Shown here: positions 969 to 21,393 of the stretch, piece after piece
Numbering within the stretch: the first letter of the stretch is position 1
How the letters are laid out: the number at the start of each line of letters is the position of its first letter
Assembly (NCBI GenBank): GCA_022562275.1
Contig: JADFPP010000020.1
Span: forward strand, 15,770 to 39,769
Reading direction: 5' to 3'
Length of the DNA: 24,000 nucleotides
From: Bacteroidota bacterium
GTDB lineage: Bacteria; Bacteroidota; Ignavibacteria; Ignavibacteriales; Ignavibacteriaceae
Translations under genes and position numbers: made by a program
Notes under the pieces: model-generated
The model's input: only the letters and a program-made list of their open reading frames with translations
Told to the model about the DNA's origin: nothing
Databases searched by the model: none

Positions 969-993
969 ATTAGATGTTTTAGTAGCTAATGTC

Positions 994-1049: not shown

Positions 1050-1137
1050 ACTATTTCACGAAAAGAACCTTTGTTAAGTAAATTGGACTCAGAATGACAA
1101 AGGAGAGAATAAATAATCAAACTGAAAAGGAAACATA

Positions 1138-2007: not shown

Positions 2008-2030
2008 AAATCATTTAAGGAAATTCTCTT

Positions 2031-3341
2031 ATGAGTGAAGTAAATATTAATGAGGTAAAAAAGATCAGTTCGGAAGATATTCATGCAAAGCATAAAGAAT
2101 ATTTGTTTCCGAGTGTAGCAAATTATTATAAAGAACCACTTGCTATCGATCACGCAGATGGATTGTATGTGTATGATCCTGAAGGTAATAAATATCTCGA
2201 TTTTTTCGGAGGCATTTTAACTGTTAGTGTCGGTCATTGCAATCCGAAAGTAACAAGCAAAATAAAAGAGCAGGTTGATAAACTTCAGCATACTTCAACA
2301 CTTTATCCGAACGAAAAGATTGTTGCCCTGGCAGAAAAACTTGCTGAGATTACTCCCGGTGAATTAAAGAAAAGCTTCTTTACTACCAGTGGAACAGAAG
2401 CTGATGAAACAGCAGTGTTTTTAGCAAAACACTTTACCGGTAACCAGGAAATTATTGCGTTGCGCCACAGCTACCATGGTCGTTCATTACTAGCGATGAG
2501 TATGACCGGTCATGCACTGTGGCGTCATGGCGGAACACATCTTCCGGGAATTAAACACGCTGTAAGTCCGTATTGTTACAGGTGTCCGTTCTCCCTTGAA
2601 TATCCAAGCTGTGAATTGAAGTGTGCACAGGATATTGAAGAATTGATAATGACTACAACAAGCGGAGAGATTGCCGGATTTATTGCAGAACCAATTCAAG
2701 GTGTTGGTGGATTTATTACTCCGCCTAAAGAATATTTTCAGGTTGCTGTTCCCATCATTAAAAAATACGGCGGCGTTTTTATTTGCGATGAAGTGCAAAC
2801 CGGATTCGGACGCACAGGCAAAAGGATGTTCGGAATTGAACATTGGGAAGTTGAACCGGATATTTTAACTGCCGCAAAAGGTATTGCTAACGGCGCTCCT
2901 CTTGGTGTAACAGTTGCCAGAACAGATATTGCCGATAGCTTTACCGGTTTAACAATTTCAACTTTCGGAGGAAATCCAGTATCGATGGCTGCAGCTCTTG
3001 CAACAATTGAAGTTATAGAAGAAGAAAATCTTGCTGAAAACGCTTATGTAGTAGGACAACATTTAAGAGACGGATTGGAAGACCTGCAAAAAAAATACCC
3101 ATCAATTGGTGATGTTAGAGGAATGGGCTTAATGCAGGCGTGTGAATTTGTAAAGGAAGATAAAGTTCCCGATAGTGAGCTTGTCGGAAAACTTTTTGAA
3201 GAAATGAAAAAGCAAGGTGTATTAATTGGCAAAGGCGGATTGTACGGAAATGTTGTTCGGATTTCGCCACCGCTTACTGTAACTAAAAGTGAAGTTGATG
3301 ATTTTATTGGAGCTATGGATAGTTCATTAAGCAGATGTTAA
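2031..3341 (+). CDS. class III PLP aminotransferase, probably beta-alanine:pyruvate/2-oxoglutarate transaminase
   Basis: DEVQTGFGRTG, the AAKGIANG Schiff-base lysine region and SGTEADE are class III aminotransferase hallmarks. The substrate is inferred only from the position between beta-ureidopropionase and the rest of the pyrimidine cluster. Confidence 0.75.
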   Translation: MSEVNINEVKKISSEDIHAKHKEYLFPSVANYYKEPLAIDHADGLYVYDPEGNKYLDFFGGILTVSVGHCNPKVTSKIKEQVDKLQHTSTLYPNEKIVALAEKLAEITPGELKKSFFTTSGTEADETAVFLAKHFTGNQEIIALRHSYHGRSLLAMSMTGHALWRHGGTHLPGIKHAVSPYCYRCPFSLEYPSCELKCAQDIEELIMTTTSGEIAGFIAEPIQGVGGFITPPKEYFQVAVPIIKKYGGVFICDEVQTGFGRTGKRMFGIEHWEVEPDILTAAKGIANGAPLGVTVARTDIADSFTGLTISTFGGNPVSMAAALATIEVIEEENLAENAYVVGQHLRDGLEDLQKKYPSIGDVRGMGLMQACEFVKEDKVPDSELVGKLFEEMKKQGVLIGKGGLYGNVVRISPPLTVTKSEVDDFIGAMDSSLSRC

Positions 3342-3551: not shown

Positions 3552-4901
3552 ATGAATTTAGCAGATAAGCTTACACAAGAAGAATACAAAAAAAACTTCG
3601 AAGAACTTGTTTCTCCTTTCACAAACAACTCAGCAGTTACGGAAGCTAACCGCTGTTTATATTGTTATGATTCGCCGTGTATGAAAGCTTGCCCGACACA
3701 CATTGATATTTCAACATTCATAAAAAAAATTGCGACGGGTAACCTTATTGGTTCGGCAAAAACAATTTTTTATTCAAATTGGATTGCATTAACCTGTGCT
3801 AAATCTTGCCCGGTAGAGGACCTTTGCGAAGGCGCTTGTGTTTATGTTGAAAAGGGTGAAAAGCCGATTGAGATAGGACGCTTGCAAAGGTTTGCAATAG
3901 ATGAGTACTTCTCATCAGGAATGCCGAAGTTATTTAATTCTAAACCAAAAAATGGTAAGTCTGTGGGAATAATTGGTTCGGGTCCCGCAAGTTTAGCATG
4001 CGGCGCCGAATTATCTTTACTGGGTTATGATGCTCATATTTACGAATCGAATGAAGTTCCCGGTGGATTAAGTACATGGGGAATAGCGCCATATAAAATG
4101 AGCAAAGCGGATAGCTTAAAAGAAGTTGAAATGATAAAAGGACTAGGTGTTAGTATTCAAACAGGTGTAACGGTCGGTGAAACAATTTCAGTTGAAGAAT
4201 TGTTTGATAAACACGATGCTTTATTTATTGGAATTGGATTAGGGGAAAGCGGAAGGTTGAGCATTACGGGTGAAGATCTCGAAGGAGTTATAGGTGCTTT
4301 AAAGTTTATAGAAAATGTAAAAGAAGAAAACTGGAGCTCGGTAAATGTTGGAGGGCACGTTGCAGTTATTGGTGCCGGTAACACTTCGATTGATGCGGCT
4401 ACTGAAGCGAAACGACTCGGTGCAGAAGAAGTGATGATAGTTTACAGAAGATCGGAATCGGAAATGCCCGCTAATGATTGGGAATATCGTTTGGCAAAAG
4501 ACGATGGAATCATCTTCCGCTTTTTAACTTCACCCATTGAAATTATTGGCAATAAAAGTGTTGAGGGTATTAAATGCATAAAGAACAAATTGAGCGAACC
4601 AGATAAGCAAGGCAGGAAAAAACCTGTGCCTATTCCCAATTCAGAATTTGAAATTCCTGTTGATATGGTTATTTATGCTCTCGGGCAGCAGCCAAAGTTA
4701 AAATTTATTAATTCTATTCCCGATCTTAAAATCGAAAACAACAAAGTTTTAGTTAACAATGGAACTTTTCAAACGAGTAATCCGAAAGTATTTGCAGGCG
4801 GCGATTGCATAAACGGCGGTAAGGAAGTAGTTAATGCAGCTTACGATGGTAAGCAGGCTGCACACGGAATTGATAAGTATTTATTAAGTAACAAAGATTA
4901 A
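3552..4901 (+). CDS. preT: NAD-dependent dihydropyrimidine dehydrogenase subunit PreT (glutamate synthase small-subunit-like)
   Basis: N-terminal Fe-S Cys cluster (CLYCYDSPCMKACP), two dinucleotide-binding motifs (GIIGSGPASLACG and VIGAGNTSIDAA) and the GGDC tail. It is adjacent to preA. Confidence 0.85.
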   Translation: MNLADKLTQEEYKKNFEELVSPFTNNSAVTEANRCLYCYDSPCMKACPTHIDISTFIKKIATGNLIGSAKTIFYSNWIALTCAKSCPVEDLCEGACVYVEKGEKPIEIGRLQRFAIDEYFSSGMPKLFNSKPKNGKSVGIIGSGPASLACGAELSLLGYDAHIYESNEVPGGLSTWGIAPYKMSKADSLKEVEMIKGLGVSIQTGVTVGETISVEELFDKHDALFIGIGLGESGRLSITGEDLEGVIGALKFIENVKEENWSSVNVGGHVAVIGAGNTSIDAATEAKRLGAEEVMIVYRRSESEMPANDWEYRLAKDDGIIFRFLTSPIEIIGNKSVEGIKCIKNKLSEPDKQGRKKPVPIPNSEFEIPVDMVIYALGQQPKLKFINSIPDLKIENNKVLVNNGTFQTSNPKVFAGGDCINGGKEVVNAAYDGKQAAHGIDKYLLSNKD

Positions 4902-5026: not shown

Positions 5027-6346
5027 ATGATTGACCTATCAATTGATTGCGGTGGTATAAAATCGCCAAACCCCTTTTGGCTGGCCTCTGCACCACCTTC
5101 AAACTCTGCTTATCAGAACTGCAAAGCGTTTGAGCAGGGTTGGGGTGGGACGGTTTGGAAAACAATTGGTGAACCTGTTATGAATGTTTCCAACCGTTAC
5201 GGCGGATTAGATTACAGTGGCGAAAAATTAATTGGATTGAACAATGTTGAACTTATCAGCGATCGCCCAATCGAAACTAATTTAAAAGAAATTGCGGAAA
5301 CAAAAAAGTTATGGCCCGATCGCGCTGTTGTTGTTTCGATAATGGTTGAATCGAAAAAAGAAGTATGGCACGATATTGTTAAACGCACAATTGATACAGG
5401 TGCGGATGGGATTGAATTAAATTACGGATGTCCGCACGGAATGAGTGAAAGAGGTATGGGCGCTGCTGTAGGTCAGGTTCCTGAATATTGTAAAATGATA
5501 ACTGAATGGGTAACAGAAGTTTCAACAATTCCTGTGCTTGTTAAGCTTACACCAAATGTAACTGATATACGCTTTCCAGCACGTGCAGCTAAAGCAGCAA
5601 ACGCAGACGGTTTAGCATTGATAAATACTATTAACAGTATAATAGGAATTGATCTCGACACATTAAAAATTCAACCGACTATTGCCGGTAAAAGCAGTCA
5701 TGGTGGTTTTGCCGGTCCTGCTGTAAAACCAATCGCTCTTCATCACTTATCACAAATAGCAAAAGACAGTGAAATAAATCTTCCTATTTCCGGTATCGGC
5801 GGCATCAGCACATGGCAGGATGCCGCTGAGTTTATTTTACTCGGTTCAACAAGTGTGCAGTTATGCACTGTCGTAATGCATTACGGTTTTAGAATAATTG
5901 ATGACCTCGTTGAAGGATTAACAAACTGGATGGAATCGAAAGGATTTTTATCTATTGATGATTTCAAAGGTAAAGCTTTAGAACAAATTGAAGACTTCGG
6001 TAATTTTAATCTCTTGCATAAAACCGTTGCACGAATAGATCAATCAACTTGTATTCACTGTAATTTGTGTTATGTTGCCTGCGAAGATGGTGCTCATCAG
6101 TGTATAGATTTAACTCCTGAAAACGGAAACTATAAAACTGAAGTAAGAGAAGAAGATTGTGTTGGCTGTTGTTTGTGTTCATTAGTGTGTCCTGTTGAAG
6201 GTTGTATTTCTATGATAAGGGTCGATGATGAATCTGAATCAAAATCGTGGAATGAATTGATGGCTGATTTTGAGAAGGAAGGTAAGGAACCAAGCTGGCA
6301 AAATCTTGAAGAATTTAAAAAGAAACATGGAATTGTAATACACTAA
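5027..6346 (+). CDS. preA: dihydropyrimidine dehydrogenase subunit PreA (DHOD-like FMN domain plus C-terminal 2x[4Fe-4S] ferredoxin domain)
   Basis: LNYGCPHGM active-site loop and a class-1 DHOD-like TIM barrel. C-terminal CIHCNLCYVACEDG and CVGCCLCSLVCPVEGC motifs. Confidence 0.85.
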   Translation: MIDLSIDCGGIKSPNPFWLASAPPSNSAYQNCKAFEQGWGGTVWKTIGEPVMNVSNRYGGLDYSGEKLIGLNNVELISDRPIETNLKEIAETKKLWPDRAVVVSIMVESKKEVWHDIVKRTIDTGADGIELNYGCPHGMSERGMGAAVGQVPEYCKMITEWVTEVSTIPVLVKLTPNVTDIRFPARAAKAANADGLALINTINSIIGIDLDTLKIQPTIAGKSSHGGFAGPAVKPIALHHLSQIAKDSEINLPISGIGGISTWQDAAEFILLGSTSVQLCTVVMHYGFRIIDDLVEGLTNWMESKGFLSIDDFKGKALEQIEDFGNFNLLHKTVARIDQSTCIHCNLCYVACEDGAHQCIDLTPENGNYKTEVREEDCVGCCLCSLVCPVEGCISMIRVDDESESKSWNELMADFEKEGKEPSWQNLEEFKKKHGIVIH

Positions 6347-6382
6347 AATTTACTTATCAATAATTTTATTGTTTATGAATTG

Positions 6383-6402
6383 CCACGACTTTTAAGTCGT
6401 GG
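6383..6402. repeat. Short GC-rich hairpin element CCACGACT-TTTA-AGTCGTGG
   Basis: Perfect 8-bp stem. A near-identical copy lies at 8003-8022. It is flanked by GAATTG motifs, as is the hairpin at 8063-8082. Confidence 0.7.
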
Positions 6403-6555
6403 GTAAATTGAATTGCTTCCTAAAAGAGTAAACCGTTTCTCCGAACGAGTCCTTTGGACAACGGTTTTAAGACTTAGTGGTTATAAGTGAAAACTAAAAG
6501 TATATCATACAAGAATTTAATAAGTATTATTACTAAAAAATAATATGGTGAAACT

Positions 6556-7944
6556 ATGTCAACATTAATAAAAAACGGTCGCATTATTACTGCGGAACAG
6601 GATTATATAGCAGACATCTACATCGAAAAAGATAAAGTAACACTAATTGGGGAGAACTTAAAAAATCAAGCCGATAAAGTAATTGATGCAAAAAACAAAT
6701 ACGTAATTCCCGGAGGCATTGATGTTCACACTCATCTTGATATGCCGTTCGGAGGAACAACCTCGATTGATGATTTTGAATCCGGAACAAAAGCCGCTGC
6801 ATTTGGCGGTACGACGTGCCTTATAGATTTTGCAATTCAGGCAAAGGGAACACGAATTAGAGATGCGCTTGATATTTGGTGGGAAAAAGCTCAAGGTAAA
6901 GCCACTATTGATTATGGACTGCATATGATTATAACTGACCTGCCGGATGCGCATATGGAGGACATGAGTGATATGGTTAATGAAGGTGTAACAAGTTTTA
7001 AACTCTTTATGGCTTATCCCGATGTGCTGATGGTAGATGATGCAACTATTTATAAGACTATGAAACATACATCAAAAACAGGTGCACTGGTTTGTATGCA
7101 TGCTGAAAACGGAAGTGTAATAGATCTTATTGTGCAGAAAGCACTTGCCGAAGGAAAAACAGCACCAATTTATCATGCACTTACCCGCCCAACTACTGCT
7201 GAGGGCGAAGCTGTGAACAGATCAATTGCTCTCGCTGAAATGGCTGGAGCCCCCGTATACATTGTTCACCTATCATCAAATGATGCACTTGAGAAAGTTG
7301 CCGAAGCAAGAGACAGGGGCTTGCCTGTTTATGCAGAAACTTGTCCACAGTATCTTTTTCTTTCTTTGGATGATATGGGCAAAGACGGCTTTGAAGATGC
7401 CAAACTTGTATTCACTCCGCCGCTGCGGGAAAAATGGCATCAGGATAAGTTGTGGGCAGGACTTCAAAAAAATACTTTGCAGATAGTTTCAACAGATCAT
7501 TGTCCGTTCTGTTATAAAGAGCAGAAAGAACTTGGCATTGATGATTTCACAAAAATTCCAAATGGGGGACCGGGTATTGAACATCGTTTGCAATTACTTT
7601 TTGAAGGTGGCGTAAACGAAGGAAGATTTTCAGTAAACAGATGGGTTGAGCTAATTTCAACTTCCCCGGCAAAAATGTTTGGGCTATATCCACGCAAAGG
7701 TACTATTGCCGTTGGTTCCGATGCCGATATTGTTATCTGGGATCCGGAATTCGAGCACACTATATCTGTTCATTCGCATCATATGCGCGTAGACTATTCA
7801 ATGTTTGAAGGAAAGAAAATAAAAGGTAATGCTGAGACAGTACTTTCCCGCGGTGAAGTAATTGTAGAAAATAAAAAATTCCTGGGTAAAACCGGAAGAG
7901 GAAATTTTTTGAAGAGAGATGCTTACGCCGGTGCGTGGGATTAA
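6556..7944 (+). CDS. dht: dihydropyrimidinase / D-hydantoinase
   Basis: GGIDVHTHLDMPFGGT metal-binding motif, FKLFMAY (carbamylated Lys region), the VSTDHCPF Asp motif and GSDADIVIWDP. These match cyclic amidohydrolases of the dihydropyrimidinase family. Confidence 0.9.
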   Translation: MSTLIKNGRIITAEQDYIADIYIEKDKVTLIGENLKNQADKVIDAKNKYVIPGGIDVHTHLDMPFGGTTSIDDFESGTKAAAFGGTTCLIDFAIQAKGTRIRDALDIWWEKAQGKATIDYGLHMIITDLPDAHMEDMSDMVNEGVTSFKLFMAYPDVLMVDDATIYKTMKHTSKTGALVCMHAENGSVIDLIVQKALAEGKTAPIYHALTRPTTAEGEAVNRSIALAEMAGAPVYIVHLSSNDALEKVAEARDRGLPVYAETCPQYLFLSLDDMGKDGFEDAKLVFTPPLREKWHQDKLWAGLQKNTLQIVSTDHCPFCYKEQKELGIDDFTKIPNGGPGIEHRLQLLFEGGVNEGRFSVNRWVELISTSPAKMFGLYPRKGTIAVGSDADIVIWDPEFEHTISVHSHHMRVDYSMFEGKKIKGNAETVLSRGEVIVENKKFLGKTGRGNFLKRDAYAGAWD

Positions 7945-7946
7945 AT

Positions 7947-8120
7947 AAATAGTTTTTTTACTATTTGGGCTAAAGCCCGTTCATTCAATTGTTATTATAC
8001 TCCCACGACTTAAAAGTCGTGGCTATTCAAAGTCAACTATCAAATTAAATTATGATGAATTGCCCCGTCCTTCAGGACGGGGAGTATAGAATTTCTAGAA
8101 ACTAATTCGGGTTTTAACCC
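7947..8120. repeat. Train of five short hairpins in the dht-permease intergenic gap
   Basis: AAATAGT-T6-ACTATTT (7947-7966), GGGC-TAAA-GCCC (7967-7978), CCACGACT-TAAA-AGTCGTGG (8003-8022), CCCCGTCC-TTCA-GGACGGGG (8063-8082) and GGGTT-TT-AACCC (8109-8120). AT-rich spacers separate them. Confidence 0.7.
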
Positions 8121-8170
8121 AACATCTTATCAATCTATTATCGATCAAAAAGTAATACTATTTAAAAAAG

Positions 8171-9607
8171 ATGCAAATGAATAGCTTTATTGATACTGAA
8201 CTTGTAGAAACTGACATTACTTCCATTGCAGACCAAAAATTAATTAATAGAGATTTATCTCCTACGAAAGTTTCAGAACGCTCCTGGGGAACGTACGCCA
8301 TCGCTGCACTCTGGATTGGAATGAGTGTTAATATTCCAACTTATATGCTGGCAAGCGGATTAATTGCCGGAGGTATGAATTGGTGGCAGGCATTGATGAC
8401 AATAGGACTTGGCAATTTAATTGTATTGATCCCGATGGTTTTAAATGCACACGCCGGAACAAAATACGGTATTCCTTTCCCAGTTCTTGCACGAGCTTCA
8501 TTCGGAACAAAGGGTTCTAATATACCCGCACTCCTTCGCGCTATTGTTGCCTGCGGATGGTTTGGTATTCAAACGTGGATTGGTGGGCAGGCATTTAATT
8601 TGTTGATAATAATTATTTTTCCAGGGTGGGCTGTTTTTTCGTGGGGTCCGGGAATTGGCTTCATGCTTTTTTGGGCAATGAACGTTTACTTTATCGTTAA
8701 AGGAATTGAATCAATAAAATGGCTTGAATCTTACGGCGCACCGTTTTTACTTTTGGTTGGTTTGGGATTACTTACCTGGGCTTATGTTAATGCAGGCGGG
8801 TTTGGTCCAATTTTAAGCCAGCCAAGTAAATTTGCAACTACCGGTGAGTTTTGGAAATTTTTTATTCCATCATTAACCGGGATGGTTGGTTTTTGGGCAA
8901 CACTTTCACTAAACATTCCTGATTTCACGCGATATGCAAAAAGCCAGAAATCTCAAATGATTGGACAAGCATTGGGTTTACCTCCTGCGATGGTTTTATT
9001 TTCTTTTATCGGTATAGCTGTTACGTCTGCAACAGTAATTATTTTTGGAGAAGCAATTTGGGATCCGGTTGCCTTACTATCAAGGTTTGAAAGTCCTGTC
9101 GTCGTTGCAATATCTCTGGGATCTCTCATTCTAGCAACGCTAACTACAAACATTGCTGCAAATGTTGTATCACCGGCAAACGATTTTGCCAACTTATCAC
9201 CGAAGCATATCAATTTTGTAAAAGGCGGCTTGATTACTGCAGTACTGGGAATTGCGATGATGCCCTGGAAACTTCTTGCTGATTACAGCGCTTATATTTT
9301 TGGATGGCTTATCGGTTACTCAAGTTTTTTAGGACCGATAGCCGGTATTTTAATTTGCGATTATTTTATTATTAGGAAAAGAAATCTTAATGTAAAAGAT
9401 CTTTATGAAACTGAAGGCGTTTACACCTACAGAAAAGGATTTAATCTAAAAGCTGTGTATGCACTTGCTGCCGGAGTAATTGTAGCATTAATTGGATTAG
9501 TTATTCCTGAAGTAAGTTTTTTATATGATTATGCATGGTTTGTTGGCTTTGCAGTTGCGTTTTTACTTTACTGGGTATTGATGGGACGATTGAGAAAACA
9601 TAAGTGA
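8171..9607 (+). CDS. NCS1-family nucleobase:cation symporter (cytosine/uracil/hydantoin-type permease)
   Basis: About 12 predicted hydrophobic segments. The N-terminal NRDLSPT...ERSWG motif and overall layout are typical of NCS1 permeases. The pyrimidine substrate is inferred from context. Confidence 0.8.
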   Translation: MQMNSFIDTELVETDITSIADQKLINRDLSPTKVSERSWGTYAIAALWIGMSVNIPTYMLASGLIAGGMNWWQALMTIGLGNLIVLIPMVLNAHAGTKYGIPFPVLARASFGTKGSNIPALLRAIVACGWFGIQTWIGGQAFNLLIIIIFPGWAVFSWGPGIGFMLFWAMNVYFIVKGIESIKWLESYGAPFLLLVGLGLLTWAYVNAGGFGPILSQPSKFATTGEFWKFFIPSLTGMVGFWATLSLNIPDFTRYAKSQKSQMIGQALGLPPAMVLFSFIGIAVTSATVIIFGEAIWDPVALLSRFESPVVVAISLGSLILATLTTNIAANVVSPANDFANLSPKHINFVKGGLITAVLGIAMMPWKLLADYSAYIFGWLIGYSSFLGPIAGILICDYFIIRKRNLNVKDLYETEGVYTYRKGFNLKAVYALAAGVIVALIGLVIPEVSFLYDYAWFVGFAVAFLLYWVLMGRLRKHK

Positions 9608-9693
9608 GCAGATTGAATTTTTCAGTTACACATTTGATTGATGATCTATAAGAATCTGGGACTATTATTTTACTTAATTGTTGATGATTTAAA

Positions 9694-9749
9694 GCAATTT
9701 AATTACGTTATTAAAAGTAATTAAAAACAGTTATCTGCAGCCTACCCTG
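9694..9749. repeat. Repeat unit D: weak, truncated copy of the sequence found 3' of the alpha-2-macroglobulin stop codon
   Basis: CAATTTAATTACGTTATTA (9695-9713) resembles CAATTAATCCCGTCATTA (12680-12697). TTATCTGCAGCCTACCCTG (9731-9749) resembles TTATCTGCTATCCTG (12728-12742) and GCAGCTACCCT (13744-13754). Similarity was judged by eye only. Confidence 0.35.
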
Positions 9750-9796
9750 ATTATGGTTAAAATTATACATTAATTAAGAAGTTAAGAGAAAACATT

Positions 9797-10261
9797 ATGG
9801 AAATCTTAAAATTTAATAAGGAGTTTGTTGAGCGTACGATAAATATTTTAAACTCATACAAAGGAAAATTTGAGTTTAGTAATCTTTTGAATTGTACCTT
9901 GGGACTAATAATTCTACCATATGAAAACATGGGTTCATCATCTTATTGGAAAAGCGAAATAGTAAGACTTGAGGACATTCCATCATTTACTATTAAATTA
10001 TTTGAACCGATAAAAAAAATGAAAAAAGGTAGAATAATACGCTATCCAAAGACAATAGGAGTATTGTTGAGGAAAATAAGAAATGGGCTTGCACATCAAA
10101 ATATCAAGCCTATAAATAAGAATAATGAATTTGTTGGTATTAAAATATTTAATAAGTATAAAAATAAGTTAGACCTTGATATAGAGTTTACAAGAGAAGA
10201 ACTATCTAATTTTGCTATTTATATCTCGAATAAATATTTAGAGGAGGATGCAAGTGGATAA
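9797..10261 (+). CDS. Small stand-alone HEPN-like protein with an Rx4H motif (putative RNase effector)
   Basis: LLRKIRNGLAHQNI contains R95-x4-H100 (nt 10079-10096). The protein is predicted to be mostly helical, with the motif in the C-terminal half as in HEPN domains. It sits 70 nt upstream of, and co-directional with, the KAP NTPase gene. Confidence 0.6.
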   Translation: MEILKFNKEFVERTINILNSYKGKFEFSNLLNCTLGLIILPYENMGSSSYWKSEIVRLEDIPSFTIKLFEPIKKMKKGRIIRYPKTIGVLLRKIRNGLAHQNIKPINKNNEFVGIKIFNKYKNKLDLDIEFTREELSNFAIYISNKYLEEDASG

Positions 10262-10331
10262 GGAAGTTAGGTATTTTGATTAAGGAATTGATTAGGTTCA
10301 GGGTAACAAGTAGCACTTTGAAAGTTGCAAA

Positions 10332-12575
10332 ATGAAACATGAATTAAAAACAACAACCACAGGATTTGATTCAGCTAAACTTAGTTATCAAGAAGACTAT
10401 TTAAATCGTTGGGATTTTGCTAAAGAAATATATGATCTTGCGATCACAACTCCCAAAGCATGGTCTGTAAGAATTAGTATTTACGGAAGCTGGGGAGAAG
10501 GTAAAAGTGTAGTTTTAAATTACATTCAACAAATTGCTAAAGCTGATAATCAAATTATACTTGAATTTAATCCCTGGGAGTACCAAACTGCTGAAGAACT
10601 TTGGGAATCGTTTGCATTATCTGTATATCAAACATTGAAGGATGCTGGAATTAAAATCAGATTATCAGATAAAATATGGTTCAACATTAAAGTTAAAATA
10701 AAAAGATTTTTTAGGAAATCGATTTTTCTTATTGAACCAATATCAAAGTTCAATGTTTACACTAAATCAGGTATACTAGTCTTAAAGAATTTTCTCCATT
10801 TTAACAAACGTATTCTAAATGAGTTACCTCAATATATGGGTGACAAGAGATTTATCATTCTAATAGATGACCTTGACAGATCTAATCCGGATATTATTCC
10901 ACAAATACTTTATTCATTAAAAGAATTATTAGATATCCCGGGCTTCTCATTTGTATTGGCATTTGATCCTGACGTCATTAACAATACTTTAAAGGCTCAT
11001 AATGTTAATTATGGAGAAAGTAAAGATTTCTTAGATAAGATAATTGATTTTCCGCGTTGGTTGCCAAAAGCTAACAATGATGAATTAAGTTACTTACTAA
11101 AAAAAGAAGGCGAGAAACATGTCAATTTTTTACCAGTTGGTTCATTAGAAAATGTATTCACACATTTACCTAAAAATCCAAGAAAGTTAAAACAATTTAT
11201 CAGATCATTGTTGAGTTTTAAAAATGAAACTGAGAGATACGATGTTGAAGAATTAAATTGGCATGTTCTACTATTAATAAACGTTCTAAAATTCAGTTAC
11301 CCATCTCTTACTGATTCGATAATTCAAAATCAAAAAATTTGGGATTCCATAACGACTGATAGATGGTTCGGAGAAAGAAGAGACAATAGTAATAGAAAGA
11401 AAGAGCATGAAGAAGAGTTATTAAAGATTATCAATGAAAAGAACCATAATAAAGATGATAGAGATAACATTCTTGAGATTATTAAAGATATTTCAAACTC
11501 AAATTACCCTATAAGCGTGGGTGCATTAGATTCTTATACTTACTTGACAGAAAAAAGATCTCCACTTACATGGAAAGAGTTTAATACTTTAATAAATAAT
11601 TTTGAAAAAGAATCTTCTATTTCGCTAATCGAAAATTTCATGGGGGAATATCCAAAACCCTCCACATTCTCCAGAGAGGATTTTCTTAAAGTGTTATTTC
11701 AAAAAACAGTTGAATATCAAAATTGGTCCCTAGGAATGGCTTCAGATACCCATCTTGAAGAGTACTTAATAAGTCACGTAAAAGATGCAAGTTTAGCGCT
11801 GAGATTATTAGCAACAATTAGTTTCGATATGGGAGGATTCGTTGGTAAAAAACCATTTCTAGATATCTCGAAATTCAGAATTCTCCATGAGATGATTACG
11901 AGATGGACTCACTTTACAATGCCAGACATTTATAAAAGAATAAGACAGGATGAGAAAGAATTATTGCTGAAAATCTGTCATGAATCTACAATTGATTTAA
12001 TCCTGATTATGAATTTTTTGCAGCCTTGGTTTCCATTTAGGACGGGAGTGTTTAATAGCATAGCTGAAGAGCAATTGAGTAAAGAACTAGGAAAAATATT
12101 GGAAGAGAGAATATCTTATCAACTGTTTGAAAATTTTAAAAAAGAAGGGTGGATAGAGTCTATTTTTATTAGAGATAAACACATAGTCGAACATTATATA
12201 TTGCTAAGAAAAAATAGCTGTTTCTGGACCTGCAACCTAAGGGATGAATTTTTTAAATTACTGAATAAATCGGCAAATAATACTAATCTTATTTTAAATA
12301 TGGCCTCTTTTGAGAGTTTGATTACCGTAGCGCTTTTAGATGAAAAGGACAAGTGGAGTGTAATACCGGATGCAGATTCAATACTACATGATCACGAACT
12401 TATTACAATAATTTGGGAAACTGCACTAAGAAAAAAAATAAATCCCAGAATGTTTAAATCACAAGAGGAATATAAAGATGATATTAGAGCCAAAACTGGT
12501 ATAGATTTACCGCTACCATCTTGGTGGGAAGAAATGAAGAATATGGTGGAGGATAGAAAACAATCCAAGGATTAG
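10332..12575 (+). CDS. KAP-family P-loop NTPase with a long uncharacterised C-terminal region
   Basis: Walker A is GSWGEGKS (aa 52-59, nt 10485-10508). Walker B is IILIDDLDR (DDLDR at nt 10866-10880), followed by VLAFDPDV and NPRKLKQFI. All are KAP NTPase signatures. The N-terminal DYLNRWDFAKEI lead-in is also typical. Confidence 0.8.
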   Translation: MKHELKTTTTGFDSAKLSYQEDYLNRWDFAKEIYDLAITTPKAWSVRISIYGSWGEGKSVVLNYIQQIAKADNQIILEFNPWEYQTAEELWESFALSVYQTLKDAGIKIRLSDKIWFNIKVKIKRFFRKSIFLIEPISKFNVYTKSGILVLKNFLHFNKRILNELPQYMGDKRFIILIDDLDRSNPDIIPQILYSLKELLDIPGFSFVLAFDPDVINNTLKAHNVNYGESKDFLDKIIDFPRWLPKANNDELSYLLKKEGEKHVNFLPVGSLENVFTHLPKNPRKLKQFIRSLLSFKNETERYDVEELNWHVLLLINVLKFSYPSLTDSIIQNQKIWDSITTDRWFGERRDNSNRKKEHEEELLKIINEKNHNKDDRDNILEIIKDISNSNYPISVGALDSYTYLTEKRSPLTWKEFNTLINNFEKESSISLIENFMGEYPKPSTFSREDFLKVLFQKTVEYQNWSLGMASDTHLEEYLISHVKDASLALRLLATISFDMGGFVGKKPFLDISKFRILHEMITRWTHFTMPDIYKRIRQDEKELLLKICHESTIDLILIMNFLQPWFPFRTGVFNSIAEEQLSKELGKILEERISYQLFENFKKEGWIESIFIRDKHIVEHYILLRKNSCFWTCNLRDEFFKLLNKSANNTNLILNMASFESLITVALLDEKDKWSVIPDADSILHDHELITIIWETALRKKINPRMFKSQEEYKDDIRAKTGIDLPLPSWWEEMKNMVEDRKQSKD

Positions 12576-12678
12576 AACAAATTTTTTATAGATTTATATC
12601 TATTGTGAGCACTGCATTCTGAAATATATATATTATCATATTGTAACAATGTGGACTTCTTAAGGGAATCTTATAAAC

Positions 12679-12841
12679 TCAATTAATCCCGTCATTATCG
12701 TATGCTTACTTTATCACTATGGCAATTTTATCTGCTATCCTGCCGTATCCGCGCACTAGCTGTATGCTTAGGCAAACTCTTTCCAAGAATGGGTCTTCTC
12801 AATTGCAGGTTTAGCGAGGATAGTAGTATAAACAATTATCT
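12679..12841. repeat. Repeat unit C, flank-derived part, with an internal ~90-nt insert
   Basis: TCAATTAATCCCGTCATTA...TTATCTGCTATCCTG aligns with 13691-13754 at the same ~55-nt spacing. Nt 12743-12830 is extra sequence bounded by the similar strings GCAATTTTATCTGCTATCC and ACAATTATCTCTATTC. Confidence 0.6.
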
Positions 12842-13010
12842 CTATTCAACTATTACTCTCACAACTTCCGAATGGCTTGTCCGGAGGGATCTTCGACAAA
12901 TTCAGGAGCGTACATTCTTTGCATTGTTGTAATACCGTTTGAGAATTCTCCTTTATGAGTTACAATTAGAGAATACTCAAATACATAAGTTCCTTTTGGA
13001 AGCCCGGTCT
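12842..13010 (-). pseudogene. Displaced 3'-terminal fragment (~50 codons) of an alpha-2-macroglobulin gene, copy C
   Basis: The reverse strand reads LPKGTYVFEYSLIVTHKGEFSNGITTMQRMYAPEF.., colinear with the live gene's C-terminus LPKGTYVFEYPLRVTHKGDFSNGITTMQCMYAPEF... A 17-nt insertion (12880-12896) shifts the last codons. Confidence 0.85.
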
Positions 13011-13025
13011 TTAAATTATTAATGT

Positions 13026-13280
13026 ATGAAACATTTTGTAAGACGATCTTATGATATTATATTTACTATAGTGGAAACTAAAGAATTAAAAAACAGAATT
13101 GATAAAAACAGTTTTTCGGTTTCATCTCTTTTTGAAAACTCCGACGAAAAGGAATATTGGCAATCCAAATCATCTTCAGAAAGGCTGGAAGCAGTAGAAA
13201 TACTTCGACAAAGAGTTTATGGCTACAATCCATTTACCACCCGACTTCAAAGAATTCTTTCAATTACTAAACTCACATAA
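13026..13280 (+). CDS. Small conserved hypothetical protein, putative partner/antitoxin of the downstream nucleotidyltransferase
   Basis: EKEYWQSKSSSERLEAVEILRQRVYGYNP..TTRLQRIL resembles small proteins I recall encoded upstream of minimal NTases. The start codon is uncertain (ATG 13026 or GTG near 13071). It overlaps the next gene by 62 nt. Confidence 0.5.
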   Translation: MKHFVRRSYDIIFTIVETKELKNRIDKNSFSVSSLFENSDEKEYWQSKSSSERLEAVEILRQRVYGYNPFTTRLQRILSITKLT

Positions 13281-13668
13281 GGTTCACTACTTAGTAATTG
13301 GCGGTTATGCAGTGGCATATCATGGTTATCCACGTGCCACCGGAGATATTGATATATGGATCACCACTAACCCGGATAATGCAAAAAAAATAGTTCAAGC
13401 AATAAAGGAGTTCGGCTTTGCTGATCCGGACATTTCTGAAGAAATTTTTCTAAAAGAGGATCAAGTAATTAGAATGGGAGTTCCTCCATTGAGAATAGAA
13501 TTATTAACCACAATATCAGGGGTTGATTTTAAATCTTGTTATGCTAACCGCATAGATGAAACTCTTGATGATGTCACAATAAGTTTCATAGGATTAGAGG
13601 ATCTAAAACAAAACAAGAAAGCCAGCGGAAGACATATAGACTTAAATGATTTGGAAAGGCTGCCTTAA
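13219..13668 (+). CDS. Minimal nucleotidyltransferase-fold protein (AbiEii/DUF6036-like)
   Basis: LVIGGYAVAYHGYPRATGDIDIW matches the hG[GS]-x(9-13)-DxD pol-beta-type NTase signature. The protein is 149 aa and sits in a two-gene layout. Confidence 0.6.
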   Translation: MATIHLPPDFKEFFQLLNSHKVHYLVIGGYAVAYHGYPRATGDIDIWITTNPDNAKKIVQAIKEFGFADPDISEEIFLKEDQVIRMGVPPLRIELLTTISGVDFKSCYANRIDETLDDVTISFIGLEDLKQNKKASGRHIDLNDLERLP

Positions 13669-13747: not shown

Positions 13748-13842
13748 CTACCCTCCAACTTTAACCCTTACCCCTTCCGAATGACTTGTCCGGAGGGATC
13801 TTCGACAAATTCAGGCGTATACATACACTGCATTGTTGTAAT
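13748..13842 (-). pseudogene. Displaced 3'-terminal fragment (~26 codons) of the alpha-2-macroglobulin gene, copy B
   Basis: Nt 13807-13842 differs from 14755-14790 at a single position out of 36. The reverse strand reads ITTMQCMYTPEF... It has the same 17-nt insertion (13789-13805) as copy C. Confidence 0.85.
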
Positions 13843-14008: not shown

Positions 14009-14308
14009 ATGGATATATTAAGCAAACATAAAGATGAATTGAATAAATTCTGTGAGACCAACAGGATAATAAAACTTTCTCTATTCGGTTCGTATGCTAA
14101 GAATAGTTATGATGAAGATAGTGATATTGACCTGTTAGTTGAGTTTGAAGATGACGCTACACCAGGATACCTTGTATTAGCACGAATGGAAAATCAATTA
14201 ACAGATCTTTTCGGAATAAAAACTGATCTCAGAACTGCAAATGAATTGAGCAGGTATTTCCGTGAGCAAATTGTAAAAGAAGCGATAGTCCAGTATGCAG
14301 CCGAATGA
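14009..14308 (+). CDS. mntA: MNT-type nucleotidyltransferase antitoxin
   Basis: LFGSYAKNSYDEDSDIDLLVEF minimal NTase motif. The protein is 99 aa and overlaps the downstream HepT gene by 14 nt. Confidence 0.85.
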   Translation: MDILSKHKDELNKFCETNRIIKLSLFGSYAKNSYDEDSDIDLLVEFEDDATPGYLVLARMENQLTDLFGIKTDLRTANELSRYFREQIVKEAIVQYAAE

Positions 14309-14627
14309 CAGAATCCGAATAAAGCATATGATTGATGCTGCTGAAGAAGCAATCTCATTTGCTGAGGGGAAATATAGAGAAGCTTTAGACAGTGAAAGAA
14401 TGTTAGTTCTTTCTTTAGTTAAAGAAATTGAAATTATCGGTGAAGCTGCAGTAAAAGTTTCAGTGGAAGTAAAAGAAATAAATTCTCAAGTTCCCTGGGA
14501 TGATATAACCGGAATGCGTAATCATCTTGTTCATGGTTATTTTGATGTGGATTTAGATATGCTTTGGAATACCGTTAAACTAGATCTGCCTATGCTGTTA
14601 ATTAAGTTGAAGAAAATTATTTCTTAG
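14295..14627 (+). CDS. hepT: HepT (DUF86) HEPN-domain toxin
   Basis: GMRNHLVHGYFDVD contains the Rx4H HEPN motif. The protein is 110 aa and shows the canonical MNT-HepT gene order and overlap. Confidence 0.85.
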   Translation: MQPNDRIRIKHMIDAAEEAISFAEGKYREALDSERMLVLSLVKEIEIIGEAAVKVSVEVKEINSQVPWDDITGMRNHLVHGYFDVDLDMLWNTVKLDLPMLLIKLKKIIS

Positions 14628-14715: not shown

Positions 14716-17700
14716 CTACTCAACCTTCACTCTCACCCCTTCAGAATGACTTGCAAATTCAGGCGCATACATACACTGCATTGTTGTAATACCGTTAGAG
14801 AAATCACCTTTGTGGGTTACTCTCAATGGATATTCAAATACATACGTTCCTTTTGGCAACCTGTCCATAAAGAAGTTTGTTGCAGCATCGCGTGTGTTTT
14901 CGTAATACCACAATCCATCCTGGTACTTATGAGTTGAAAGGACATTAATAGGTTCAAACCCGGCAGCACGCATATCTTTCAGGTGAACAAATTCCATATC
15001 TCTATCTACTCTTATTTCAATCCTTACTTTTATCATATCACCCGGTTTAAGTTTTGTATCATCTGTAACAGGAGTTATTTTCTTTCCGGTTTCACTATCA
15101 AGTTCAAGGAATAACTGTTTCTTAATTTTCAGCGGAGTTTCACTTGGTGTTATCTTATCGAGCTGTTCATAATACTGCCAGTAAAGTGATCCCCACGCAA
15201 CAACATTATTATTATTAGTTACGGTAACTTCTCCCATTTCAGGTTTTATCTCTTCACCTTTCCAGGAAGTTTTAAAATAACCGGTTCCCGCTTCAATGTG
15301 GATTTCAGGTCGCCGGACTCCGGAGAGTCCGTCGGACTCTTCGAGATTGTTATAAAGATCAATTAACTGACCGCCAACTTTTATATCAGGCAGCTTTGAA
15401 TCGGCAAGCCAGTTTGTACCTCTTAAAAGAAGTGCATAACAAGCTTCGGCAGTTGCTTTGGTTGTTTTCCAATCCTGTACTTGTTTTTGTTTTAACAGCC
15501 ATACCTTCAATAGATCAACAGATTCCTGGTCTTTAACAATCTCATCTACCGCTTCAATAAGCAGCGCCTGCGTTTCTATCGGCGCCTGGTACCACCACCA
15601 TCCCCATTCTTCTTTAAAGTACATTCCCATCTCATCATTAAATACTGCATTCTCAATTATCGATTTGATTATAGCTTTTGCAGTCTTTGCATCGTACAAT
15701 CTGTAAAGTGCAAGTGCTATCATCCCCTGCATATACTTGTTGTTACTAAGCCAGTATGTCTGTGCCTGCCATTTCCAGTAATCGAATGCTTCTTTATGTT
15801 TTTCATCAACAGGAATATCAAGGTAGTAGCTTCTTCCGTAAAGATACTGTGCCTGTATGTAGCCGATATGTTTCTTCTTCATGTTTACACCGCGCCTCTT
15901 AAGGCGTTCATAATCTTCGTGCATTCTTACATCGGTGTAGAGAACCGCCTTCGTTAGCATGTCCCAAGTGCTGCTGTTCTCTCTTATATCTTTTATCCCA
16001 AGCCGTTCAAGATGTCCCATTCCAACTACAATATATTGAGTAATAAACCTGTTTTCGCGGAGTCCGGGAAACCAGGGCCATCCGCCGTTTGAGTACTGGT
16101 TTTCTCTCAGTTGCCGTTCGGCTCTTTCCAATTCATTTGCCATTCTGGTAAGATCGAAGAGCAAACCAACTCTGCGTTTCCTTTCCGATTCATCCTGTGC
16201 ATCAAGAACCCAGGGAGTTTCTTCGAGCAGTGCGTACTTTAATTCCTGGTTCTTTTCAAGGTTTGAAATAAGTGCATCTTTATCTATTTCTTTCCACGAT
16301 TCAAAAACCTTTTTGATCTTGGGGTTTGAGTTTGCAATAAAAGTTGCAATGCTGTTTGCATAAAAACGGTTAAAGATCTGCTCACTGCACTCATAAGGAA
16401 ATTCCATCATATACGGCAGCGCCTGTATTGCATACCATGCGGGATTTGCAGTGAACTCAAGTGTGAGATTATAATTCTGTAAAGTTGAAGAAGTATTGTT
16501 CATCAACTTTTCGAGTATGAAAGTTTTTGTCTGATTTCCTTTTACAGGAAGCGGAAGTGTTTCTGTAACCAGCATTCTGTTAACTAATACCGGAAGTGCA
16601 TTCTCCTCGCCGTCAGAAAACTTCCCTGATTTTGCAATCACCCTGTAAACAATCGCATCAACTTTACCCAGAGGAACTTTTAATCTCCAACTTAATCCTT
16701 CGCTCATTTTTTTATCAACAGAGAATGATTTTATGTTATCCGTGTTCTCAAAAAGATGATCAACTGGTTTCATTGTAAATGCATCGAAGAGCTGTAGCGT
16801 TGCAGAACCGGAAAGTGAATGATCTGAAAGATTGCTTACCTTTGCAGTAAAGTATATTTCATCGCTTTCTCTTAAGAATCTCGGCGGATTTGGTTGAATC
16901 ATCAAATCTTTTTGTGTAACTGTTTCATTATAAATTATTCCGCTCTTAAGATCTTTTGTATGAGCAAAGCCCATAAACTTCCATCGGGTTAATGCTTCCG
17001 GCACAGTGAATGAGATTACAATTTCACCCTGCTCATTTGTTTTTAAATCAGGATAGAAGAAAGCAGTTTCATTCAGATTTTTTCTAATTGAAACTCCTTC
17101 AAATGAAGTTTGAGAGATTTTATCTTGATCTCCATTCAGTTTTTTTCTCTCTTCATCTTTTCCAAGCTTTGATGAGGTTATATCACCTTCTTTTTCTTCC
17201 ATAACTACACCTGATTGCAAGGACAGCTCATCAGAAACACTCCGGGTAGGCATCTTATAAAATCTGCCATCACTGTAACCATAGCCATAAAAATAAAAAC
17301 CAAAGGTGTTGATGTACGGATAATAGAAATGCTGCCTTGAAACATAAATATTCCACCCCTCTTCATAAATTTTTGAACTGAGAATCTGGAAGGAATTATC
17401 TGTTGTCCAATTCAATCTGGAGTAGTAATAAGGATAAATATTAAAGCCCCAATAGTTTGCTGCAAAAGCATCCAGAGATGCATCATACATCGAAGCAAGT
17501 AGTTCGGCAGCTATTGCATCTCCGTTTGGTCCGGTTATTTTTAACTTCCATTCTTCGTCAGTTCCGGGAAGAATTTTATTTCTGAAAGTTTCAAATGTAA
17601 TATTAAGATGTTTGTTCGTCCACGGAACCGAAATGACTTTTGTTAAAGTATGGTTTGCATTATTGATAGTTAGAGTTACATGCACGACCACGTTTCCGCG

Positions 17701-20700
17701 GTAATCTTCTTTAATTGGAATTTCAATTTTCTTTTGTTCATCATCCAAAGTAATCCATTCTTTCTTAATTATCTTTCCATCGTATTCAAGTTCGTAAAGT
17801 GCTTTCACATCTTCTTCAGCGGAACCGATGTAAAGTTTTACGATTTCTCCCGGCTCATAGTTTTTTGGTTCAATATAAATCCAGTTCGCCTCTCTTAATG
17901 GCATTTTATTAGATTCAGCATTAAACAAAGTAAAATATTTTATAAGCTCAACAGGAGTTCCGTTTTTATCTTTTGTTTTAAGTGTAACAACATACTTGCC
18001 GGGATCCCAATCATACTGATCTTTAAAAACTATGAATGAACTATCTGTTGTTGTAAAACTTTTTTCAAATACTTTCTTATCTTTTCTCCAGTTAAAGAAC
18101 TGATCTTCTTCATTATAAACATCGTGAGCAAAGCTTTCATAAAAATCTTCTTTAGTTAAAAAGAATTTATCCGGCTTTTGCCACAACCTGTTTCTGAATA
18201 TTCGTGATGGAGATTTAAGTTTAAATATATCAACATAAACTTTTGCAGATTCAAATTGCCCGTTTAGATTTGTAGTTGAAACCGAATAATTAACAACTGA
18301 ATCGCTTTTAATTATTTCCGGCAGATTAATATTTACAACCAAAGCAACATAACCCGCACTTACATAAGTTTGTGCAGAATGTGTTTCACCGGTTACATCA
18401 ATAACATCAGCATAAATAGTATAATTAAAAACAGGATTTGTTTCCCTTGGAATTGAAAGATCAGGAATAAGATTAAATTCAACTTTGAATTTGCCTTCCT
18501 TATCAGTTTTGGTAACACCGTTTGTGATTTCCATTTTAGTGTTATTTCCCCAGTACCAGTTATAATAACCTCTGAACCAATAGTAGTAATAAGGGAATGA
18601 AACATTTCGTACAACACGATATTTAACTTCAACATCGTTTAAGTTTGCACCCGAATAAGTTTTTGCAAAACCTTCTGCAGTTACTTTATCATTTAAAGAA
18701 TAGCTTCCTTTTATGGGTTTAAACTTTACCTCGAATTTAGGACGTTTGTATTCTTCAACCCTGAAGTATTGAGAACCGACCTCATTCATTATATAATACT
18801 GTCCGCCAATCTTACCAAAGGGAATTGTAAACTGTCCGTTAAAAGTTCCGTATTCGTTTGTAGTTAAAGTAACATCGGAAATTTTCTGGCTGTTTGCATC
18901 ATAAAAAGTAACAGTTGTTTTTTTATCAGTAATTATTTCGTGATCTTTCTTACCATCTGTTTTAATCATCAATCCTTTAAAGTAAACTAACTGCCCTGGT
19001 CTGTAAATTGCTCTATCAAGATAAAAGAAAGTTGTTATTCGCTTTGTGGAATTATCTTTGTAGTAATAGGAGTAGTAATTCTGTGATTCAAAACGATCAT
19101 CATCATCAGTAAAAACAACTTTGTAGTTATTGTATTTATTTTCCTCTTTCGTGAACTTAAAACTACCTTCGCTGTTTGTCTTTCCACTTGCTACTTTGAA
19201 GAATTGATATTCTCTATCATCAGGTACATATTTTTGCACATAAATTTCAACATTAATTTTTGAGAGAGGATGTCCTGATTCCCTATGCAATGCGTAGAAT
19301 TGAATCACATTCTTTCCCATATCTCTTCTTATATAACTGATATTCGAAACCCACGTTTTACCGTAACCAACAGCATTTTTTATGTATGTAAAATTTTTAT
19401 CTGTTGCAACAAGAATCAGATACCGACCTATTGGCAGTGCAGGCATTTTTATTTCCACACTATGATCCTGGTAGTCTTTGTCAGCAGGAAGATTAAGCGA
19501 CCACTCCCTTGTTGGCTTCTGCTTAACATAAAATTGAATACGCTTCTGTGCATTTAAATTCTTTTCTTTTTTCTCCAATTTATCATTCCAGGGAATGATT
19601 CGTAAATAAATCCGATTAACATTCGTAAAAGATATGAGTGCTCGAAATGGTTGATCGGGAATATTACCGTATTCAGTTTGAAATCTTAAATTCTTGCGTA
19701 GTATCTCATTCTGCAGCCATCGGCACTCCTGTGCACCAGATTTATCGGGATATTTTTCAAAAGCAGTGCTGCAAATTTCAAGAGCTTTTTTAATCTCCCA
19801 TTTGTGTTTATCGGATACAGAAGAATTATATTTTTTTCCTTCATCGTAAAAATATTTTGCTTTATTAAAAGAGATGAGAGTAGAATAAGGAACATCGCTG
19901 TACTGATCTTCCATTTTGATAATTGCTAAAATATATAAGCTGTCTTTTTCTGTGTGAACACTGTTTCCTCTTACAAAATTTAATCGTGCAAGATCAACAT
20001 CTATCAGCGCATCTTTTTCATCATCATTAAGATGGAATGCAATTAACTTTTGAAATAGTTGAATCGCATAAAACTTTAGTGAAAGAGAATCCTTGGCGGT
20101 AAAATTGATATCAACAAAATTTTTCGCTGAAGAAAAATCATCAGGACTGTTTAATTCAAATTTGTAAACAGGATCAGTTACCGAAGCTTCATCATTGATA
20201 TAAAAAGTGAGGGCTGTTTGCGCAAGCAAATCGAACAATGTCGGGCGAAGGTATGCCTGCCCCGAGTTGCTGTAATAAAGAATATCTTCAAATTCTTTTA
20301 TGGAAATCAATTTTAAGCTGTCACTCTGTTCAAGCGATGCCTGGTATAGTTTTACAATTTCTCTTATAAGATGGGGAAGATCCCATGTTTGAAAACCTGC
20401 CTCGCCGGTAGGCAGGTCATTATTATCAAAGTTCACTGTTTCGGTTCTTTGCTGAAACCTGTAACGGTTGTTCTGGTAATACTGCCAGTAAATATTTGCG
20501 AGAATGGATTTTAGAATTGCATTTGCAGGGAAGGATGTTGTGTTTATTTCATCTTTAACACCATTTAATATTTTTACGTGGCTATCCTCTTCAGTGTAGT
20601 TTGTGAATTTAAGTTTATAGAAAAGTGATTTTATGATCTGTGACTGGTTGTCTTCTTCTTTAGCCGTCTTATATATTTCTTCAACAATTTCCAGCGCCGA

Positions 20701-21057: not shown

Positions 21058-21393
21058 ATGAATCAAATAAGAAAGAATAAGAGTGTCTTAGAACTACTAA
21101 AAAAACATGGCGATAAATTAACCACAGTACGCGAAATAAATCACTGGATTTATTTTAAATCATTTGATGATTTGTGCGATTACAAAGATATATTGTCCAA
21201 AAAAGGATTCATAATCCAGAATATTGATAAGAATAAAGATCCAAATGAAACTCATCCGTTTTCACTATGTATTAGCAGGGACGATCGGGCGGATCTAAAA
21301 AGCATAAATAAAGTAACGTTAGAACTATCCCGGTTAGCTGAAGAATACAATGGTAATTATGATGGATGGGAAACACCTATTATTGAGGATTGA
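21058..21393 (+). CDS. rraB: RraB-family protein (regulator of ribonuclease activity B-like)
   Basis: LLKKHGDKLTTVREINHWIYF and LAEEYNGNYDGWETPI parallel E. coli RraB (..DPDALYTIEHHL.. and ..LAEKFDVEYDGWGT..). Confidence 0.65.
   Translation: MNQIRKNKSVLELLKKHGDKLTTVREINHWIYFKSFDDLCDYKDILSKKGFIIQNIDKNKDPNETHPFSLCISRDDRADLKSINKVTLELSRLAEEYNGNYDGWETPIIED

Follow-up and report, generated by a model that had tools for sequence, protein, structure and literature searches.

Neighbouring HEPN and KAP NTPase genes in a Bacteroidota accretion island: a dedicated defence system or separately acquired genes?

Do a small HEPN gene and a KAP-family NTPase gene that lie head-to-tail on a Bacteroidota (Ignavibacteriaceae) contig form a dedicated two-gene defence system, or did they come to stand next to each other independently? 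The question is raised by a stretch of 24,000 nucleotides (nt) from contig JADFPP010000020.1 (assembly GCA_022562275.1, positions 15,770 to 39,769), hereafter the window, in which two open reading frames (ORFs) of the same strand at 9797-10261 (154 aa) and 10332-12575 (747 aa) are separated by only 70 nt. The initial annotation had proposed that they constitute a system with the NTPase as switch and the HEPN protein as RNase effector. Such a system, if real, would bring to bacterial immunity a design in which an NTPase gates an RNase. The observation itself was confirmed, since the ORF coordinates, the strand, the 70-nt gap and the motif positions were all recovered in translation and the motifs are invariant in relatives; the interpretation is partly supported. 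Both genes belong, as judged from profile matches, to known families, and the two-gene "system" is not backed by comparative evidence. We favour, with a probability of about 0.55, the reading that the HEPN and KAP genes are two independent, separately acquired defence-type genes in an accretion island and that no dedicated two-gene system is present. They are rated as two independent defence genes because single-gene KAP NTPases with uncharacterised C-terminal regions were shown to be potent antiphage defences in a study that tested Walker B mutants and deletion of the C-terminal region (PLoS Biology 2026, PMC13552941).

A dedicated HEPN-KAP system was defined operationally as one whose two genes are neighbours in several unrelated genomes, and such a distribution was not found. 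The initial annotation had named the absence of co-occurrence in other genomes as a refuting outcome, and this is the outcome obtained. Loci (labelled by L-numbers) were gathered by genome, metagenome and viral scans and by contig look-ups, which yielded 191 KAP-seeded loci and 44 non-redundant genes of the KAP subfamily, that of the window and 43 others. When a profile of 97 HEPN family members was run over all 200 loci (1.56 Mb), translated in six frames, it matched the window and the HEPN-seeded loci only, and none of the 191 other KAP-seeded loci contained a HEPN gene of this family (pEK499_p136). In turn, KAP was absent from all four other HEPN contexts (L001, L002-5, L006 and L181). The HEPN gene lies among transposases in L001, is solitary in L002-5 and precedes an integrase gene and an MmeI-type restriction-modification (R-M) gene in L006; these three contexts hold the nearest HEPN relatives at 44-56% identity. 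If near-identical copies in Bacteroidota metagenome-assembled genomes of the same kind are set aside, the HEPN-KAP pair is confined to the window. Judged by its distribution, the KAP subfamily is the conserved element and does not need this HEPN partner.

The fourth context, L181, allows the history of the HEPN gene to be read at the nucleotide level. Its HEPN protein is 88% identical to that of the window, and nucleotide identity (about 85-90%) sets in about 119 nt upstream of the ATG, at the left end of the region 9678-9796 (forward strand), and ends within about 6 nt of the stop codon. The shared unit comprises about 590 nt with about 90% nucleotide identity (window 9678-10267, L181 2520-3113). 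Upstream of it the genes differ, with an NCS1 permease in the window and a peptidase S9 in L181, and the sequence further upstream is unrelated. The gene that follows HEPN in L181 is unrelated to KAP; it is a 47-aa partial ORF which neither Pfam nor a PDB sequence search identified. Since identity spans just the HEPN gene and its upstream region while both flanks differ, these two move as a unit, and the upstream region presumably holds the gene's own promoter. The alignment places a recombination junction exactly between the HEPN and KAP genes, in the 70-nt spacer (10262-10331, forward strand), and both genes are probably co-transcribed through an accident of insertion. The promoters themselves did not stand out: a sigma-70 promoter scan scored no better than shuffled sequences, and one Bacteroidota-type TAnnTTTG box at 10207 was not significant.

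The 154-aa protein (9797-10261, forward strand) had been credited with an Rx4H HEPN motif as its only recognisable feature. The motif stood, while the restriction has to be dropped, since the match to Pfam PF18736 (HEPN pEK499_p136; E 4.8e-23, 82 bits against a cut-off of 26.6) covers residues 5-150 and profile positions 6-148 of 152 and makes the protein a full-length member of a named family. Its predicted catalytic motif RNGLAH (residues 95-100; 10079-10096, forward strand) agrees with the Rx4-6H motif of the HEPN superfamily, and R95, N96 and H100 are invariant in an alignment of 18 relatives. The AF2 model (pLDDT 86.8, pTM 0.83) consists of four core helices and two beta inserts; RNGLAH is located at the C-terminal end of the third helix (residues 87-99), and the six beta strands are distributed over the two inserts, which are placed after helices 2 and 3. 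A survey of HEPN proteins likewise describes the motif where helix 3 ends, as well as inserts that are tolerated at matching positions (Anantharaman et al. 2013, PMC3710099). A Foldseek comparison of the model with the PDB gave no significant match and leaves the HEPN fold without support from structure comparison; we conclude from it that the pEK499_p136 family is without a solved structure.

All 97 detectable relatives of this protein are single-domain, and fusions to KAP were sought among them and not found. Like the rest of its family, the window protein shows a full-length profile match, a conserved RNxxxH and a small stand-alone architecture, and the family has a linkage to R-M genes and mobile elements (the MmeI-type gene in L006 is an example); it differs by the adjoining KAP NTPase, which among the loci examined was seen solely in this window. 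The linkages given for the family in the HEPN survey are R-M, ART/Macro, NamA and Pgl, and KAP NTPases are not among the neighbours listed (PMC3710099). The searched literature contains no experimental test of any pEK499_p136 member, a tblastn search of plasmid records with the HEPN protein gave no match, and viral contigs held no HEPN relatives. Nor does the protein belong to the type VII HepT/MntA toxin-antitoxin (TA) pairs, as it does not match HepT and stands beside a KAP gene. We infer RNase activity for the HEPN protein, a switch role for the NTPase and a defence function for both genes. By analogy with HEPN defence and toxin proteins, the former would be a stand-alone RNase with an intact RNxxxH that would cleave RNA once activated.

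The 747-aa protein (10332-12575, forward strand) was rightly assigned to the KAP family, as it matches Pfam PF07693 (KAP_NTPase) over residues 29-296 with E 4.1e-30 and 105.5 bits (cut-off 20), Walker A and Walker B included. An alignment of 25 subfamily members shows G52, W54, G55, G57 and K58 to be invariant in the Walker A motif GSWGEGKS (residues 52-59; 10485-10508), D179, D180 and R183 in the Walker B motif DDLDR (residues 179-183; 10866-10880), and N282, P283 and R284 in NPRKLK (residues 282-287; 11175-11192), all on the forward strand. A hydrophobic segment is lacking, as the Kyte-Doolittle mean over 19 residues peaks at 1.42, and the protein is therefore soluble, as the initial annotation had it. 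Residues 113-158 form an amphipathic insert with low model confidence, and the protein represents a soluble variant of the PF07693 family. The AF2 model (pLDDT 84.1, pTM 0.74) shows an alpha/beta NTPase domain and, behind it, about 450 residues that are all helical. The profile searches that had been recommended secured HEPN and KAP membership and left this C-terminal region without a Pfam assignment. The best Foldseek matches of the model were RdrA of RADAR (8hrb, 8fnu; E about 1e-5, TM-score 0.26-0.30) and AAA+ initiator and clamp-loader proteins, all with low TM-scores, and the similarity to the PADLOC models for PifA, QatA and PDC-S20 is restricted to the N-terminal part.

It is the all-alpha C-terminal domain (residues ~300-747; 11229-12572, forward strand) that sets the protein apart as a distinct KAP subfamily. 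T413, E416, N656, W695, P729 and W731 are invariant in the 25-member alignment, and the domain is rare, as a set of 1.84 billion clusters contains only 268 representatives of it. In the 150 best matches listed, it occupies roughly residues 290-740 of proteins of KAP length. A KAP domain was present in all nine members that were scanned against Pfam. Full-length relatives share 23-53% identity over about 98% of the length. Five longer members (P0213, P0226, P0270, P0300 and P0302) carry N-terminal extensions of about 90-165 residues with several hydrophobic helices, from which it follows that the subfamily has membrane-anchored as well as soluble forms; effector domains suspected in these longer members were rejected, as the extensions are multi-pass membrane anchors. 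A tblastn search of plasmid records with KAP returned generic N-terminal KAP matches only, and viral contigs gave N-terminal matches only. In a functional scheme the N-terminal NTPase domain would serve as an NTP-driven switch and the 450-residue helical domain as a sensing or interaction surface that is gated by the NTP cycle.

Elsewhere the KAP subfamily is mostly an add-on in operons of SNF2 helicases and Type IIG methyltransferases. Ten of the 44 subfamily genes, nine of them among the 17 closest to the window KAP, run in the same direction as a Type IIG/DrmMI-like methyltransferase gene, and these loci often also carry a DrmD-like (PLD-)SNF2 helicase. The KAP gene lies between helicase and methyltransferase in L016, L031 and L098; 46-73 nt separate it from the methyltransferase, and its overlap with the helicase ORF amounts to 4 nt in the first two loci and to about 14 nt in the third. 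Operons with helicase, methyltransferase and KAP extend over 1723-12069 in L016 and 1738-11808 in L031, and further ones are found in L098, L011, L013, L174, L177 and L032. The scanned genes of the KAP-helicase-methyltransferase loci contained no matches to DrmA, DrmB or DrmC, and no named system matched. The searched literature holds no account of this operon placement or of the TIR neighbour described below. The tie of the KAP subfamily to R-M-type operons and to bare TIR genes is the part worth following. With its rarity, its fixed architecture, its SNF2-helicase/Type IIG-methyltransferase operons and the recurring TIR gene, the subfamily is a more useful lead than the pair and could help to show by what means soluble KAP NTPases, whose antiphage role was validated only recently, find their effectors. 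The lesson of the pair is that defence islands readily yield convincing-looking "operons" out of unrelated cassettes.

Several observations nevertheless weigh against two independent genes. The HEPN-KAP gap measures just 70 nt, a search of the spacer found no terminator-like site, and both genes have a similarly low G+C content (0.27 and 0.31, compared with 0.39 for the flanking pyrimidine-catabolism operon). For these reasons joint expression is likely; the two genes are probably co-transcribed in the window lineage, in an arrangement that is lineage-specific. The number of independent HEPN contexts examined is only four. No killing or effector domain could be recognised in KAP by Pfam, in the model or by Foldseek. 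Moreover, within the clade of more than 40% KAP identity all ten distinct loci have a small co-directional ORF at no more than 70 nt. These small partners include a 154-aa TIR protein in three loci, proteins of 208-211 aa, 196 aa and 124 aa without family assignment, and others. The TIR gene is located upstream of KAP in L009 (48-nt gap; TIR at 5488-5952) and downstream of it in L011 (14 nt; 8283-8747) and L178 (7 nt in called-gene coordinates; 4419-4883), and the TIR proteins are 83-84% identical where their KAP proteins are 79-86% identical. Since TIR stays by KAP while switching sides and has diverged about equally, it argues for a coupling of KAP with effectors in general. PADLOC calls this TIR protein ThsB-like; no ThsA-like gene was seen among the Pfam-annotated called genes of L009, L011 and L178, where no search with a ThsA profile was run.

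These observations can be accommodated by a modular arrangement, in which an NTPase defined by its C-terminal domain would detect infection and license a small, exchangeable effector encoded next to it, be it TIR, HEPN as in the window, or another. RNA cleavage by HEPN would then abort infection, and the module would form a second layer on SNF2-helicase/Type IIG-methyltransferase systems. We regard this explanation, the main rival, as possible but rather unlikely, together with its corollary that the window holds a HEPN-armed version detached from its R-M partner; if true, it would describe a new defence module. Besides the coupling to TIR and the small ORFs, it gains from a soluble KAP protein that lacks an effector domain and from the neighbours of more distant subfamily members, which lie beside NOV_C, DUF4268 and DpnII-MboI nuclease-type proteins; a resolvase also occurs next to such a member. 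A soluble NTPase with a separate effector has precedents in QatA of QatABCD and in RdrA/RdrB of RADAR, the best match to the KAP fold, if a weak one, and the HEPN survey reports a fusion of HEPN with an AAA+ ATPase in SNF2-helicase R-M operons (PMC3710099). However, there is no universal partner even among KAP proteins of 77-86% mutual identity, which carry different sets of neighbours, and the TIR gene is absent from L174, L176 and L032. Six of the 31 subfamily loci with adequate flanks have a solitary KAP gene. No KAP-TIR fusion occurred in the loci gathered and no KAP-HEPN fusion among the proteins examined. The HEPN family accompanies KAP nowhere else (0/191) and occurs alone elsewhere, the junction falls exactly between the two genes, and chance alone is expected to bring defence genes together in defence islands. 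The general logic of an NTPase switch with a separate small effector, as put forward in the initial annotation, may hold in view of TIR beside close KAP relatives, while for this particular pair it is a hypothesis. A further explanation takes the pair for a toxin and its neutraliser, with the HEPN RNase restrained by KAP as antitoxin and freed under stress or infection. A HEPN RNase that stands alone and has its active site intact would be expected to need restraint, the window already has two HepT/MntA HEPN-toxin pairs, and the genes are closely spaced. Still, a 747-aa NTPase is unlike known antitoxins and the KAP subfamily is widespread without this HEPN gene; as the HEPN family occurs without KAP and sometimes without any close neighbour, it needs no KAP to be tolerated, and we hold a toxin-neutraliser pair to be highly improbable. 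It is likewise improbable that one or both genes stand outside defence, whether as cargo that decays within a mobile element or with a function in the cell, even if the HEPN fold lacks support from structure comparison and the KAP C-terminal domain lacks a Pfam or confident fold match, because both ORFs are intact with invariant catalytic motifs and both families have R-M, abortive infection (Abi), TIR, Fic and TA genes around them in numerous unrelated genomes. Two independently acquired defence-type genes therefore remain our preferred reading.

In agreement with the initial annotation, which had not recognised a named system, no HEPN-KAP system was found in PADLOC, NCBIfam or the searched literature, and no TIR-KAP system in the searched literature. 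Comparison with known systems shows partial likeness only. RADAR is likewise a two-gene arrangement of an NTPase (the ring ATPase RdrA) and a separate effector (the deaminase RdrB) and provides the best structural matches to the KAP model, but with TM-scores of just 0.26-0.30; its effector is of another type, and the window contains no deaminase gene. QatABCD combines a KAP-type NTPase, the soluble QatA, with separate effectors, and the N-terminal NTPase of the window protein resembles QatA (PADLOC E 2e-19). However, the NCBIfam QatA score of 62.9 bits is far from the cut-off of 600, and genes for QatB, QatC and QatD are absent from the window. PifA of the F plasmid, which is itself membrane-associated, shows no full-length similarity, as the PADLOC model aligns residues 9-261 with profile positions 4-270 of 720; since its profile matches the N-terminal part only, the C-terminal domains of PifA and the window KAP are unrelated in sequence. 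EF_KAP and its relatives share with PifA and the window protein an N-terminal KAP NTPase and a long C-terminal region without known domain, and EF_KAP differs by its transmembrane helices from the soluble window KAP (PMC13552941). The title of reference 41 of that study connects PifA with membrane permeability lesions on T7/T3 infection. Tmn, a transmembrane KAP/YobI-type NTPase, did not appear among the PADLOC matches, and KAP has no transmembrane segment.

A likeness in logic to the proposed pair is offered by PrrC/RloC (ABC ATPase with anticodon nuclease) and by Ava_2192-type HEPN-AAA+ fusions, which couple an NTPase and a HEPN nuclease as a back-up layer on restriction-modification. The R-M link is shared, as the KAP subfamily often occurs in SNF2-helicase/methyltransferase operons. 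In contrast, PrrC/RloC and Ava_2192-type proteins each consist of one fused polypeptide, with an NTPase of the ABC or AAA+ type, while here two genes and a KAP NTPase are present. No fusion exists among the 97 HEPN relatives or the 150 listed matches of the KAP C-terminal domain, nine of which were scanned against Pfam, and the window contains no R-M genes, with neither methyltransferase nor helicase genes.

Some candidates that arose around the KAP subfamily were discarded. TIR-KAP fusions hinted at by an iterated TIR profile were due to profile drift and were gone with a clean profile and domain coordinates. A single family "X" upstream of KAP genes turned out, on reading the sequences, to be two unrelated families that had been merged by a seeded hidden Markov model; hhalign comparisons of the HEPN alignment with family Y and with the merged X alignment, the latter a weak test as it joins two unrelated families, gave probabilities below 1%. 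Several neighbour ORFs in loci of high G+C content were low-complexity artefacts.

Most of the small partner proteins had no Pfam, PADLOC or NCBIfam match. Directly upstream of the two KAP genes nearest to that of the window lies a 196-aa protein (L008 1166-1756, L094 1220-1813) without match to these three collections, whose His...Cys pattern (FISHCN ... LMSCCEG) looks caspase/CHAT-like by eye. A Verrucomicrobia contig (L013) carries paralogous subfamily KAP genes at 6001-8223 and 10907-13123, 2.7 kb apart; the first overlaps a following ORF for a protein of 159-171 aa in which an HNH-like motif can be made out by eye, and DUF6883 and DUF4926 genes follow the second. The partner in L177 reads as nucleotidyltransferase (NTase)-like, with a weak NCBIfam match to ANT(9) (E 7.5e-4) far below the cut-off. 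In L024 a small serine recombinase (resolvase) gene overlaps the end of the subfamily KAP gene (575-3243) by 4 nt, and such a resolvase-KAP arrangement served as a marker for defence discovery (PMC13552941).

The surroundings of the pair in the window are consistent with an accretion island. The metabolic operon proposed upstream is a reductive pyrimidine-catabolism operon with the NCS1 permease gene, and the convergent gene on the other side (14716-20883), described as housekeeping-type, encodes a 2055-aa protein that is alpha-2-macroglobulin-like as judged from reading its translation. The accessory nature of the segment between them is upheld by the contrast in G+C content. Of the two TA-type cassettes that had been recognised there, the MntA/HepT pair (14009-14627) is a solid assignment and the NTase cassette (13026-13668) a weaker one. 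In the latter an 84-aa ORF with a weak match to the AbiEi C-terminus overlaps a 149-aa DUF6036/aminoglycoside-NTase-like ORF by 62 nt; it may be a minimal AbiE-like pair, and its matches score close to the curated cut-offs or fail to reach them. Scans for Rfam families and tRNA genes in the window returned nothing, and no integrase is present there.

A remnant on the reverse strand at 12868-13002 represents the 3' end of the alpha-2-macroglobulin-like gene, since its 45 aa are 71% identical to the C-terminus of the 2055-aa protein (tblastn, E 6e-17), and it sets the right-hand limit of the HEPN-KAP segment. At the nucleotide level, decayed copies at 12847-13002 and 13756-13842 (reverse strand) share an 87-nt direct repeat of 85% identity that encodes ...ITTMQRMYAPEFVEDPSGQAIR, and both have in common a 17-nt stretch that is missing from the end of the present alpha-2-macroglobulin-like gene. 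One remnant lies on each side of the NTase cassette, and both come before the MntA/HepT cassette. With two remnants of the same 3' end, the TA cassettes appear to have arrived by successive insertions at this site, while the HEPN-KAP segment lies beyond the oldest remnant. Taken with the breakpoint in L181, the remnants make the island a mosaic in which at least four pieces were acquired separately. The second MntA/HepT (type VII TA) pair, at 22220-22850, is located beyond the alpha-2-macroglobulin-like gene and has an RraB-like gene (21058-21393) and a DUF2809 gene before it.

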